A DNA stretch of 64,000 nucleotides from Bacteroidetes bacterium GWF2_33_16 (GCA_001768565.1 MEOE01000013.1:413930-477929); one strand, 5' to 3'; shown: positions 4,413 through 7,196, numbered from the stretch's first letter. The notes: generated by a model not told the origin, from the sequence alone. A program made the numbers and translations.

Positions 4413-6404
4413 TTATTTATTTAATTCTTTATTAATCAGATTGTCTAATTGTTCACTATTTTTATTTAAGCCCAGTTTTTGAGCCATTATAAAATCTTTT
4501 TTGGTTTCTTCAATTTTTCTTTGTTTTAGGTAACAAAGCCCACGCTTATAATAAAGGGTAGCATTGTTTCCATCAAAACGAATTGCATTAGAGTAATCTC
4601 TAGCTGCATTTTCAAAATCATTTAAATTAAAATAAGATTGTCCCCGATTGATCATAGCCTGTTTATACTCAGGATTTAATTCAATGGCTTTGTTATAATC
4701 TTTTATTGCATTACTAAAAGAATTTTGCTGGGCCCATAAGTTAGCCCTGTTAAAATAAGCATTAGGGTAATGTGGAGCCAATTCAATAGCTTTATTAAAA
4801 TCATTCAATGCATTATTATACTCGCCCAAACTGCCAAAGGCCACACCTCTGTTTGCATAAGCCAAATAATTGGCCGGCTTTAGTTCAATAGCTTTATTGT
4901 AATCATTTATTGCACTATCCCATTTTTTCAACTGTGCAAATACCATCCCTCTATTTAAATAAGCTGATGAATCCTTTGGGTTCATAAGTATTACCCTTGA
5001 AAAATCATTTAAAGCCTCGTTTGTTTTTCCGGTTTTGGCTAATAATGAGCCCCTGTTTAGATATGCTTTTGTTGATCGGGGTTTTAATTCGATTGCTTTT
5101 GTAAAATCATTTAAGGCTTTTACGTAGTCTCCTTTTTCTTTGTATCCCAGACCTCTGTTGTTATAGGCTATGCTTACATTTGGGTATTTCTGAATTACAT
5201 CGTTAAATAATGTAAAATCATCTTTCCATACTTTTGTTCTTGAAAATGTAAATACCGATAAGAACAAACAATAGATAACCAAAATACCCTTTACAACTTT
5301 AAGTATCTGCTGCTTTTTAATAGATGATAAAATAAATGGTATTAAAATAAATATCCCTACTGATGGAATATAATCATATCTGTCGCCAAGCAAGTTATCT
5401 CCAATAGGAATATCGAAGAGTTTTATAAGTAAGAAAATATTTACTCCAAAAAATGCTAAACTAAAAAATACAATTCTGCTTTTCTTAAAAGATTTAATAA
5501 GTGCAATTAAATAAAGTATTGCAGGTATTAACCATAACCAGAATTGCCAGGGTAATTCATTATTGATTTTGGTGGGGTAAGGATAAAACCCAGATAATTT
5601 AAATGGGATGATTAGCTTTCCAAGATATTGTGTAATACTATAAGCTGCAATTGGAATGCGTTCAATAAAGCTAAATGGAGGTTTATCGTAGGATCCCCAT
5701 GTTGTGTTTTGTGCACCAATAGCAATAAGGCCAAAAACAATACCAATTAAAAGGAATGGAACCTTTTCAAACCAAACGGTTTTGGATTTAAAATCTCTTT
5801 TTAAATAAATATCAATTAGAACCAATGTAGGTACCAAGCTGATTGCCATTACTTTTGATAACCCTGAGAAAATAAAAAGTATTATTGATAAGATATAGAA
5901 AATTGTTTTCTTATTAGCGATATATTTTAAATAACAAATTAATGAACTAAAGAAGAAAGCTGTATACAATAAGTTTTTACGCTCCGACATCCATGCCACA
6001 GACTCAACCTGAATTGTATGAACACCGAATAATAATGCTACCAGTAATGCCCAGTTCGAATTTTGAAAAAGTATTTTTACAAAAAGAAAAACCAGGTAAA
6101 CATTTATTAAATGCAGAACAATAGAAGTAATATGGAATGCCAATGGGCTATCACCTGATAATTTATAATCAATGGCTAAGGAAATCAAGGTAAAAGGATG
6201 ATAATGACCATCGAAATATATTGTAAAGTATCCTAAAATTTTGTTAATAGATAACTCCTTGATTAATAAATTATTGGTTATATAACGACTATCATCCCAC
6301 TCTAGAAATCCATTCCAGAAAATCGGACTAAATACCAGGCAGGTAAGCACAAGTACTCCAATCAATTTCCAATATTCTGATATATTTTTCTTCAAAAGTG
6401 TCAT
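4413..6404 (-). CDS. TMTC/PMT-like GT-C fold membrane glycosyltransferase with seven C-terminal TPR units
   Basis: 663 aa. The N-terminal ~400 aa are polytopic membrane sequence, with an acidic loop-1 motif FLEWDDSRYITNN and FHITSIVLHLINVYLVF. The C-terminus carries seven consecutive 34-aa TPRs of the form AYxNRGxxxxxxGxxxxAxxDxxKAIELxP. Confidence 0.75.
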   Translation of the reverse strand: MTLLKKNISEYWKLIGVLVLTCLVFSPIFWNGFLEWDDSRYITNNLLIKELSINKILGYFTIYFDGHYHPFTLISLAIDYKLSGDSPLAFHITSIVLHLINVYLVFLFVKILFQNSNWALLVALLFGVHTIQVESVAWMSERKNLLYTAFFFSSLICYLKYIANKKTIFYILSIILFIFSGLSKVMAISLVPTLVLIDIYLKRDFKSKTVWFEKVPFLLIGIVFGLIAIGAQNTTWGSYDKPPFSFIERIPIAAYSITQYLGKLIIPFKLSGFYPYPTKINNELPWQFWLWLIPAILYLIALIKSFKKSRIVFFSLAFFGVNIFLLIKLFDIPIGDNLLGDRYDYIPSVGIFILIPFILSSIKKQQILKVVKGILVIYCLFLSVFTFSRTKVWKDDFTLFNDVIQKYPNVSIAYNNRGLGYKEKGDYVKALNDFTKAIELKPRSTKAYLNRGSLLAKTGKTNEALNDFSRVILMNPKDSSAYLNRGMVFAQLKKWDSAINDYNKAIELKPANYLAYANRGVAFGSLGEYNNALNDFNKAIELAPHYPNAYFNRANLWAQQNSFSNAIKDYNKAIELNPEYKQAMINRGQSYFNLNDFENAARDYSNAIRFDGNNATLYYKRGLCYLKQRKIEETKKDFIMAQKLGLNKNSEQLDNLINKELNK

Positions 6405-6413
6405 TTCTTTCTT

Positions 6414-7196
6414 TTAGACTGCTAATTTGTTAACTTCAAGATTAAAAACGGGTGAACTAATGTCCATGCCTGTTTTTTCTGATTTCATGAATTTATTATA
6501 TCTTATAATTGCATAGATTGCTGCTAATGCATCAAACCAGCCTATTTTTTTCTCCTTATAGCTTCTACCCTCATATGAAATTGCAACTTCGTTAACTTTG
6601 ATAAACTTATTTTTTGACAATTTAGCTGTAAGCTCATGGTCAAAAGAAAATCTGTTTTCGCACAAATCAATCGACTTTAATAAGTTTGCATCCATAAGTT
6701 TGTAGCAGGTTTGAATATCTGTCAGACTTAAACCGCTTAACCAATTAGAAAATGTTGTAATTCCTTTATTAATTATTTTATGGCCCCAATATGATTTTTT
6801 ATACAAGTTCATATTAAGAAATCGTGATCCATAAACAACATTGGCTTCTCCTGATAAAATAGGTTCTAGCATAACATTATAATCTGAAGGATTATATTCT
6901 AAATCGGCATCTTGTATTAATATCAGGTCGCCTGTTGCAATCTTTAGCCCATATCTAATCGCATTACCCTTGCCTTTGTTTGTTTTATTTTTAATATACC
7001 AAAAATCTAGATTTGTGTGTTTAGAAATAAAAAACTCAATTTTTTGATTACTAAGATCTGTTGAACCATCATTAACAATTACCAGTTCTTTTCTAATTTC
7101 ACCTATCAAATTGGTATCTGCTATTTTTTGTAACAGAATTTCAATTGTAGATTCTTCATTGAATACTGGAATTATTATACTGAGTTTTTTATACAT
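6414..7196 (-). CDS. Family 2 glycosyltransferase, polyprenol-phosphate sugar synthase-like (Dpm1/GtrB type)
   Basis: 260 aa. Motifs LSIIIPVFNEE, VNDGSTD and QDADLEYNP are typical of soluble GT2 enzymes that make lipid-phosphate-linked sugars. Confidence 0.8.
   Translation of the reverse strand: MYKKLSIIIPVFNEESTIEILLQKIADTNLIGEIRKELVIVNDGSTDLSNQKIEFFISKHTNLDFWYIKNKTNKGKGNAIRYGLKIATGDLILIQDADLEYNPSDYNVMLEPILSGEANVVYGSRFLNMNLYKKSYWGHKIINKGITTFSNWLSGLSLTDIQTCYKLMDANLLKSIDLCENRFSFDHELTAKLSKNKFIKVNEVAISYEGRSYKEKKIGWFDALAAIYAIIRYNKFMKSEKTGMDISSPVFNLEVNKLAV

Follow-up and report, generated by a model that had tools for sequence, protein, structure and literature searches.

A TMTC-like GT-C/TPR glycosyltransferase and a putative polyprenyl-phosphate-sugar synthase encoded upstream of a giant repeat protein in an Rhs-toxin operon of Bacteroidetes bacterium GWF2_33_16

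Introduction

Metazoan TMTC1-4 (CAZy family GT105) are O-mannosyltransferases of the endoplasmic reticulum (ER) that act on cadherins and protocadherins. The published topology model of TMTCs has 11 transmembrane (TM) helices, a cytoplasmic N-terminus and tetratricopeptide repeats (TPRs) on the non-cytoplasmic side, and the same work notes that prokaryotic homologues exist, nothing more (PMC7801869). In Streptococcus mutans, the GT2 glycosyltransferase PgfS and the GT-C enzymes PgfM1 and PgfM2 glycosylate the adhesins Cnm and WapA (PMC5856776; bioRxiv 10.1101/2024.05.05.592596), and a general O-glycosylation system has been described in several species across the phylum Bacteroidota (PMC8729774). 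Here, we analyzed a gene pair at positions 4413-7196 (minus strand) of a stretch of 64,000 nucleotides (nt) from Bacteroidetes bacterium GWF2_33_16 (MEOE01000013.1:413930-477929), hereafter called the window, in which a GT2 gene is followed by a gene for a polytopic GT-C protein ending in TPRs and then by the gene of a giant repeat protein, X. The two enzymes very likely act via a lipid-linked monosaccharide. The best available reading for the acceptor is the giant X encoded directly downstream, to which we give an even chance.

Bacterial proteins of the TMTC-type GT-C/TPR architecture are, as far as literature searches go, among the largest enzyme families for which no tested member was found. 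These searches gave no characterized bacterial member, in line with what an initial annotation, made from the sequence alone, had claimed. The usual obstacle for this family is that the glycosylation targets are not known. At the present locus and at those of two diverged relatives, the enzyme gene directly precedes the gene of one recognizable type of giant exported protein, which provides a specific acceptor candidate.

Results and Discussion

Gene pair and domain organization

The gene pair and the candidate acceptor have the following coordinates in the window (lengths in amino acids, aa):

4413..6404, minus strand: TMTC-like GT-C_A/TPR membrane glycosyltransferase, 663 aa (P0001; open reading frame (ORF), full-length AF2 model with pLDDT 91.7, Pfam PMT_2 and TPR matches)
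5205..6404, minus strand: membrane domain, P0001 residues 1-400, 11 TM helices (AF2, Foldseek, hydropathy, K/R distribution)
4419..5174, minus strand: seven TPRs (residues 411-648) and a capping helix (residues 650-662), predicted to be periplasmic
6414..7196, minus strand: putative polyprenyl-phosphate-sugar synthase, GT2, 260 aa, without TM segment (P0002; Pfam, PDB relatives)
3..4406, minus strand: N-terminal 1468 aa of X (3657 aa in total), the candidate acceptor; the rest lies beyond the window (full ORF C13:407362-418335)

The genes are tightly packed on one strand, with an intergenic gap of 9 nt between GT2 and GT-C/TPR, and the gene of X begins 6 nt past the end of the 663-aa gene. The two ORFs of the initial annotation and the 9-nt gap were borne out, and the motifs it had singled out were located at residue 36 (WDDSRYITNN) and residue 90 (the H..N..LH helix string FHITSIVLHLINVYLVF) of the 663-aa protein and at residue 95 of the GT2 (QDADLEYNP). 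The seven TPRs it had described as perfect are in exact 34-residue register, starting at residues 411, 445, 479, 513, 547, 581 and 615. Their helix pairs are seen in the full-length model, and the last repeat is followed by the capping helix.

The C-terminal third of the 663-aa protein matched Pfam TPR_1 (9.5e-56), and the top structural matches of this part were consensus-TPR structures and the TPR structures of OGT. The match of the membrane half to Pfam PMT_2 was marginal (26.4-27.8 bits against a cut-off of 26.1). Pfam scans of the protein gave no match to the MIR domain, in whose place the TPRs stand, and none to Wzy_C, the N-domain scans included. Compared with PDB sequences, the profile of the N-domain (residues 1-400) had no match even at E = 10; it has no solved close relative.

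Fold and topology of the GT-C/TPR protein

The full-length AlphaFold model was built from a 33-sequence alignment. Because the neighbors found in a fold search with this model were all TPR proteins, residues 1-400 were modeled separately, giving a pLDDT of 92.1 and a pTM of 0.93. Every significant PDB match of this N-domain in Foldseek was a GT-C_A enzyme: archaeal AglB (9e-5), yeast and human STT3 (TMq 0.55-0.57), Chaetomium Pmt4 (2.7e-3, TMq 0.55) and ArnT (5.5e-3, TMq 0.41-0.47), with PglB, AftA, DPY19 and Pmt1/2 as further matches. The N-terminal half, described as polytopic from the sequence, is predicted by this model to adopt a GT-C_A fold with 11 TM helices. Of the two folds named beforehand as arguing against a protein-glycosylating enzyme, that of O-antigen ligase (WaaL) was absent from the significant PDB fold matches of the N-domain and that of ArnT was among them; since ArnT, oligosaccharyltransferases (OSTs) and PMTs share the same core, the fold is not decisive and the acceptor class cannot be read from it.

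In the model, the 11 hydrophobic helices are connected by K/R-rich loops (residues 1-9, 165-166, 201-214, 308-309 and 362-364) alternating with acidic loops that bear the conserved polar motifs. This alternation predicts that the N-terminus is cytoplasmic and that the loops with DD, K184 and R342, together with the TPR arm, are periplasmic.

Conserved motifs and subfamily assignment

The residues of the predicted periplasmic loops comprised D37-D38, Y68-H69-P70, E134...W138.S.E141-R142-K143, S183-K184, P267...Y274-P-Y-P and D341-R342-Y343.Y345, all invariant or nearly so in 33-35 homologues and then in about 380. Within the larger set, D37, D38, K184, R342, Y343 and Y345 were invariant or nearly so, with D37 and D38 conserved in at least 95% of the sequences. 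The motifs can be laid alongside those of TMTCs loop by loop: in loop 1, W36-D37-D38 corresponds to motif M1 and Y68-H69-P70 compares with SHKSYRP; in loop 2, E134..V..W..S-E-R-K compares with RxD; in loop 3, S183-K184 compares with KE (M4); in loop 4, P267..L-S-G-F-Y-P-Y-P compares with DW (M5), whose position is taken by F273-Y274; and in loop 5, D341-R342-Y343-D-Y345, with an invariant R342, compares with ERxxY (M7).

A motif census was made of the window subfamily (120 word-search matches and 139 library representatives) and of a sister subfamily (120 Flavobacterium/Fluviicola-type sequences, including the protein of genome G123). The sister subfamily keeps Y-R-P, S-R-D-E, L-S-K-E and S-Y-D-Y-S, which is the canonical TMTC pattern. 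In the window protein K184 is kept and the next residue is V (G/V/S/A across the subfamily), and the subfamily has F/Y/I where TMTCs carry the Asp of DW. The DUF1736 domain (PF08409) was not found in the window N-domain by hmmscan at E up to 10, PMT_2 alone being found, and none of the seven N-domains scanned matched it at E up to 1. Because of the missing DUF1736 match and the replacement of both predicted metal ligands, the sequence places the window enzyme in a sister subfamily that is TMTC-like in architecture and not among the canonical TMTCs. The replacement of the ligands with retention of the general base and the phosphate-binding residues looks like altered chemistry rather than decay. 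TMTC likeness was judged here by architecture, topology and motif placement against the published model. The TMTC architecture proposed by the initial annotation thus stood as regards the combination of GT-C and TPRs, the topology and the placement of motifs; DUF1736 and the KE/DW ligands did not, and the sugar may be other than mannose.

The size of the family was estimated with a representative library, which also served for the motif census: the N-domain profile matched 106,861 clusters at 50% identity, 29,430 of them at E <= 1e-30. The members carry the source label "tetratricopeptide repeat protein" or, at JGI, "protein O-mannosyl-transferase". A search with the G123 protein gave 3244 matches, and the 120 listed were all close relatives from Flavobacteriia. 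The GT-C family occurred in 35 of the 301 sampled Bacteroidota genomes. Tandem paralogues of GT-C/TPR genes, in two or three copies, are frequent elsewhere in the phylum (L039, L044, L047 and L050). In G123 (L015:8989-11692), GT2 and then GT-C/TPR lie directly after dnaB, convergent with a gene for a 1490-aa SprB-repeat protein of the type IX secretion system (T9SS).

The GT2 as putative donor synthase

The 260-aa protein matched Pfam Glycos_transf_2 (1.6e-27), and its maximum 19-residue Kyte-Doolittle value was 1.03, hence it has no TM segment. Its best PDB relative was the Pyrococcus DPMS 5mlz (2.1e-15, residues 4-233), followed among solved structures by ArnC (1e-10) and GtrB sll0501 (2e-8). 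QDADLEYNP...YGSRF aligns with DADLQHPP...IGSRY of this DPMS, with DAD as the DxD and with the GSR motif. The NCBIfam matches came in the order AglJ, PgfS (1.3e-16), one unnamed glycosyltransferase model and ArnC, PpgS being found too; as all scores were below the equivalog cut-offs, no orthologue was assigned and the donor sugar cannot be named. The sequence comparisons support membership in the DPM1/ArnC/GtrB/PgfS/PpgS clade of polyprenyl-phosphate glycosyltransferases, so that the earlier view of a soluble GT2 akin to polyprenol-phosphate-sugar synthases is upheld by its DPMS, ArnC and GtrB relatives and by the missing TM segment. The absence of TM helices is compatible with membership in this clade, in which human DPM1 and mycobacterial PpgS are not known to have them either.

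A role as donor synthase is supported by co-occurrence, by repeated adjacency and by the context of a paralogue. The GT2 family was present in 40 of the 301 genomes and co-occurred with the GT-C family (odds ratio 6.2, p = 1.9e-5, uncorrected for phylogeny), and G123 (after dnaB) and locus L056 again have the two genes side by side. The paralogue (C16:88144-91679; 48% identical, 237 aa, with DADLEYDP) heads an operon whose next two genes encode polytopic proteins (480 and 456 aa) without Pfam family, which weakly match NCBIfam NF046093 and NF047440 (putative membrane glycosyltransferase/glycopolymer families). From its sequences, this operon looks like a second lipid-linked-sugar module. A GT-C relationship of its 480-aa protein was considered and dropped, the hhalign comparison with the family profile not being significant (probability 1%).

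Gene order around the GT module

The gene pair belongs to an operon of approximately 36 kb on the minus strand (whole-genome view), a polymorphic Rhs-toxin cluster. Its genes are ordered 703-aa protein, OmpH-like protein, lipoprotein, P0007, p146, GT2, GT-C/TPR, X, LolA3-family protein, 4070-aa Rhs protein and 174-aa membrane protein. L001-L003 (70-72% identical) have p146, GT2, GT-C, X (2586-2612 aa), LolA3 and Rhs in the same order as the window. In L055, with a GT-C N-domain 48% and a P0007 52% identical, the lipoprotein and P0007 are followed by a p146-like protein (E 1e-8), GT-C/TPR, X, a LolA3-like protein and Rhs; this X has 3029 aa, a C-terminus 59% identical and Kelch/PKD matches. L056 (41% identical) is rearranged: a P0007-like protein fused to the X C-terminal domain precedes a 263-aa ORF and a DUF6443 protein, and these are followed by GT2 (45% identical), GT-C/TPR and then a giant of at least 3330 aa. 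This giant aligns over residues 25-1072 with residues 5-1062 of X (27% identity, E 9e-79); in its C-terminal part, the match is to the Rhs protein.

The N-terminal region of X is homologous to the giants directly downstream of GT-C in both L055 and L056. Since the adjacency was kept in L055 and in the rearranged L056, the GT-C gene tracks this X-N-type region and stays directly upstream of it even when the C-terminus is different. P0007 homologues were found in 22 of the 301 genomes, and 12 loci from 10 of these genomes formed the comparison set of P0007 clusters. All 12 loci had a P0007 homologue, a protein sharing with X its C-terminal domain of approximately 160 aa (320-1904 aa in total, or the domain fused to the P0007 homologue), an ORF at the LolA3 position (208-295 aa; LolA3 family confirmed in two) and an Rhs giant. 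The X-N-type region was absent from all 12 of these clusters, which are GT-free, and so was p146. The GT module is an extra that certain lineages have in an Rhs cluster otherwise lacking GT genes.

Proposed mechanism and alternative explanations

The glycosylation of X would proceed in four steps. From its family, the TM-less GT2 would work on the cytoplasmic side of the inner membrane and load undecaprenyl phosphate with a single sugar taken from a nucleotide sugar, and the lipid-linked sugar would then be flipped to the periplasmic face. There the 11-TM GT-C_A enzyme, whose DD/K/R catalytic loops and seven-TPR arm are placed in the periplasm by the model and the charge pattern, would pass the sugar to an acceptor gripped by the TPR arm. 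Judged from gene order only, the acceptor would be the Sec-exported X and possibly other Ig-like proteins of the operon. X would be modified in the periplasm before its export or its assembly with the P0007/LolA3/Rhs toxin machinery, and glycosylation would plausibly stabilize or protect its long beta-sandwich array. A more general proposal, which we regard as possible and rather doubtful, is that the bacterial TMTC-like enzymes include a subclade with dedicated substrates: every member would lie directly upstream of one type of giant beta-sandwich or repeat arm protein, belonging to the machinery that exports and delivers Rhs toxins in Bacteroidota, and would O-glycosylate its folded modules in the periplasm, with altered chemistry that does without the usual metal ligands.

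X was chosen as the acceptor because its adjacency to the GT-C gene is conserved across divergence and rearrangement. Several observations weigh against this choice. The target assignment is circumstantial, resting wholly on gene order. The GT2 and GT-C genes were absent from 12 of 12 comparable Rhs clusters, and the GT-C and P0007 families were unassociated at genome level (odds ratio 1.2, p = 0.48). In G203, an X of 1904 aa (PKD, fn3, GBD, VWA) occurs without GT genes in the genome sample, and the idea that X expansion is always accompanied by GT genes was thereby ruled out. The L055 cluster is without GT2. No flippase gene is visible in the operon, and a search of the giants for Ser/Thr-rich disordered stretches, the streptococcal type of acceptor, found none. 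The three GT-bearing lineages fall in one 13-member clade (support 0.97), in which the node joining the L055 protein (P0040) to that of the window has a support of 0.25; since they share this clade, the association with X may stem from one or two ancestral events and not from repeated recruitment. The dedicated pair for operon cargo suggested by the initial annotation is accordingly favored by the adjacency to an X-N giant in three lineages and opposed by the 12 GT-free clusters, by G203 and by the 20 other GT-C family loci, in diverse contexts, that have no ORF of at least 1500 aa within 10 kb.

These 20 loci without giant neighbors would also fit a general or housekeeping periplasmic system with many or distant targets, the place in the Rhs operon being a historical accident of insertion. 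In the same direction point the enormous size of the family (about 107,000 clusters), the 48%-identical relatives that stand alone next to kdp and nrd, and the fact that the 663-aa gene is the sole GT-C/TPR copy in the genome, so that it could serve general targets; this last point, too, weakens the case for X. Such a general system nevertheless appears unlikely, as the position upstream of an X-N-type giant has been kept over 41-72% identity and through rearrangement, the gaps are only 9 and 6 nt, and the occurrence of the family in 35 of 301 Bacteroidota genomes does not suit phylum-wide housekeeping. The same count led us to reject the general O-oligosaccharyltransferase of Bacteroidota as an identity for the enzyme.

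Two further explanations concern the nature of the acceptor and the activity of the enzyme. A sugar could be transferred, as by ArnC/ArnT or GtrB/GtrC, to lipid A/lipopolysaccharide (LPS), capsule or another envelope glycan, with a possible purpose in altering the producer's own surface with regard to the toxin system. ArnT (GT83) appears in the list of fold matches (E 5.5e-3), ArnC ranks second among the solved relatives of the GT2, and the fold does not discriminate between acceptor classes; TPR arrays are also found in polysaccharide-export proteins (weak matches to BcsC and PgaA), which likewise counts against X. We consider a non-protein acceptor quite improbable, given that OST and PMT outscore ArnT (TMq 0.55-0.57 vs. 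0.41-0.47), that Pfam and NCBIfam scans showed no other LPS or capsule genes in the operon, and that architecture, topology and motif placement are those of TMTCs, whose acceptors are folded beta-sandwich domains (PMC7801869, PMC11292533). The operon scans turned up none of the arn/gtr partner families (ArnA/B/D/E/F, GtrA). The replacement of both residues modeled as metal ligands in TMTCs is a difficulty for the glycosylation of X and would be explained if the GT-C/TPR protein were catalytically dead and served the periplasmic giants as a TPR chaperone or scaffold anchored in the membrane. This is very improbable: the replacements are common to the whole large subfamily, in which D37, D38, K184, R342 and the E134...W...SERK loop are invariant, a pattern of conservation that marks an enzyme still active, its chemistry changed, and the donor-synthase gene adjoins in three of four cluster versions. 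Several GT-C enzymes work without metal ligands of the TMTC type. Modification of X thus remains the reading we prefer.

Other components of the operon and related loci

The remaining genes of the operon that lie in the window upstream of the gene pair are as follows:

14379..16490, minus strand: Ig_7/PKD-like repeat protein, 703 aa, first gene of the operon (Pfam Ig_7 2e-12, PKD_6)
13824-14363, minus strand: OmpH/Skp-like protein, 179 aa (Pfam OmpH 8.5e-13)
13172-13831, minus strand: lipoprotein-like protein, 219 aa
7705..13188, minus strand: P0007, 1827 aa, core of the cluster, with SpvB/TcB-N-like N-terminus
7229..7669, minus strand: p146 (P0003), secreted protein of 146 aa with signal-peptide-like N-terminus

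Sec-type signal peptides are present on all giants. The 703-aa protein is conserved in L001, L003 and L055. Its ORF is listed from a TTG (16427-16490), and MRILTSIILILFTL..., 21 codons in, looks like the genuine signal peptide, so that translation probably begins with the ATG near 16427. The OmpH-like, lipoprotein and P0007 genes overlap by 8 and 17 nt, and the first two are conserved in L001, L003 and G087. P0007 had no Pfam, NCBIfam or PDB sequence match. Homologues of p146 are found at the corresponding place in L001 and L003, with 43-46% identity, and in L055, with 23% (E 1e-8). The initial annotation had placed the gene pair among beta-sandwich and beta-helix surface proteins; this is too simple: upstream lie the secreted p146 and P0007, downstream lies X with its Ig/PKD/FISUMP repeats, and the whole is an Rhs-toxin operon. 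A scan for terminators and for sigma-70 promoters, whose consensus is ill-suited to Bacteroidota, gave counts like those of shuffled sequence, with no intergenic terminator on the operon strand.

X has a signal peptide, Ig/PKD/FISUMP repeats (Pfam, NCBIfam) and a conserved C-terminal domain outside the window. Over its last approximately 160 aa it shares 47% identity with the 365-aa X of G087, and this part ends in a YD-repeat-like stretch, YVYD...LDE.NYAT.YEY.EEG.LIR.KKETERG (L014:762-11735, minus strand). This domain is the conserved core of a component 320-3657 aa long across genomes (L017, L019, L022-L031); in several genomes the P0007 homologue carries it as a fusion at its end, and in two the region matches CBM_4_9. 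The general O-glycosylation sequon of Bacteroidota, D(S/T)(A/I/L/V/M/T), has a genome mean of 0.31 sites per 100 aa and is strongly depleted in both of the largest exported proteins: the 3657-aa X has 3 sites vs. 11.6 expected (1 of 500 shuffles as low), and the 4070-aa Rhs protein has 2 sites vs. 14.3 expected (0 of 500 shuffles as low).

The LolA3-family protein of the operon has 242 aa; no role is known for the LolA3 of F. johnsoniae (PMC11885536). The 4070-aa protein (L013:873-13619, minus strand) contains DUF6443, BNR/sortilin repeats, RHS repeats and an Rhs-associated core at residues 3716-3800. Its tail of approximately 270 aa is without family match and is directly followed by the 174-aa multi-TM protein; this pair has the appearance of a toxin tip with its cognate immunity protein. 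The Rhs relative in L003 bears a CDI_toxin_EC869_like tip instead.

Two more members of the 13-member GT-C clade (L057:3810-11875 and L060:3810-11239) lie 66 nt downstream of an alpha-2-macroglobulin gene, whose product is a protein of beta-sandwich modules (2041 aa in L057, split into 805 and 1227 aa in L060). The divergent neighbor at these loci encodes a 2161-aa T9SS-tailed protein. Two further clade members had no giant neighbor.

Implications

A GT module upstream of X would add a post-translational step to the Bacteroidota-wide Rhs-toxin cluster of P0007, X, LolA3 and Rhs, and a subfamily that dropped both predicted metal ligands bears on the catalytic mechanism of GT-C enzymes. If the pair is indeed dedicated to X, prokaryotes would have a counterpart to the O-mannosylation of cadherins by TMTCs, and a first acceptor could be named for a family of roughly 100,000 protein clusters, with glycosylation as part of building a contact-dependent toxin apparatus. 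If the acceptor is something else, the enzyme would be an ordinary member of a common family.

Comparison with known systems

The window protein resembles metazoan TMTC1-4 as an 11-TM GT-C protein with N-terminus in and TPRs out, by DD in loop 1, Lys in loop 3 and (D/E)RxxY in loop 5, with H/Y-x-P and E..V....R in the same loops, and by a candidate acceptor built of beta-sandwich repeats. It differs in having no DUF1736 match, in the replaced Glu of KE(T/Q)xxT and Asp of DW, and in its 663 aa with seven TPRs; its carrier would be undecaprenyl and not dolichyl phosphate. The Flavobacterium/Fluviicola-type subfamily has the same architecture, and G123 shares the order GT2 then GT-C; it retains YRP, SRDE, LSKE and SYDYS, whereas the window subfamily does not.

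The streptococcal Pgf system likewise combines a polyprenyl-phosphate-sugar GT2 with polytopic GT-C enzymes and targets surface adhesins encoded nearby, and PgfS ranked second among the NCBIfam matches of the GT2 (1.3e-16, below the cut-off). It belongs to a Gram-positive, its GT-C enzymes are without TPRs, and its acceptors are Ser/Thr-rich, unlike the giants of the window. Actinobacterial Ppm1/Pmt (GT39) and the yeast and other fungal PMTs share the pairing of a donor synthase with a GT-C enzyme, the marginal PMT_2 match and the fold matches to Pmt4 and Pmt1/2; unlike them, the window protein has no MIR domain, carries DD rather than DE, and has TPRs in place of the luminal domain. ArnC/ArnT and GtrB/GtrC share the two-step chemistry, ArnC and GtrB being related to the GT2 and ArnT having the same fold, but their acceptors are lipids or glycans and their transferases are without TPRs. 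Overall, the locus is closest to the animal TMTCs in architecture and to PgfS/PgfM, Ppm1/Pmt and ArnC/ArnT in logic.

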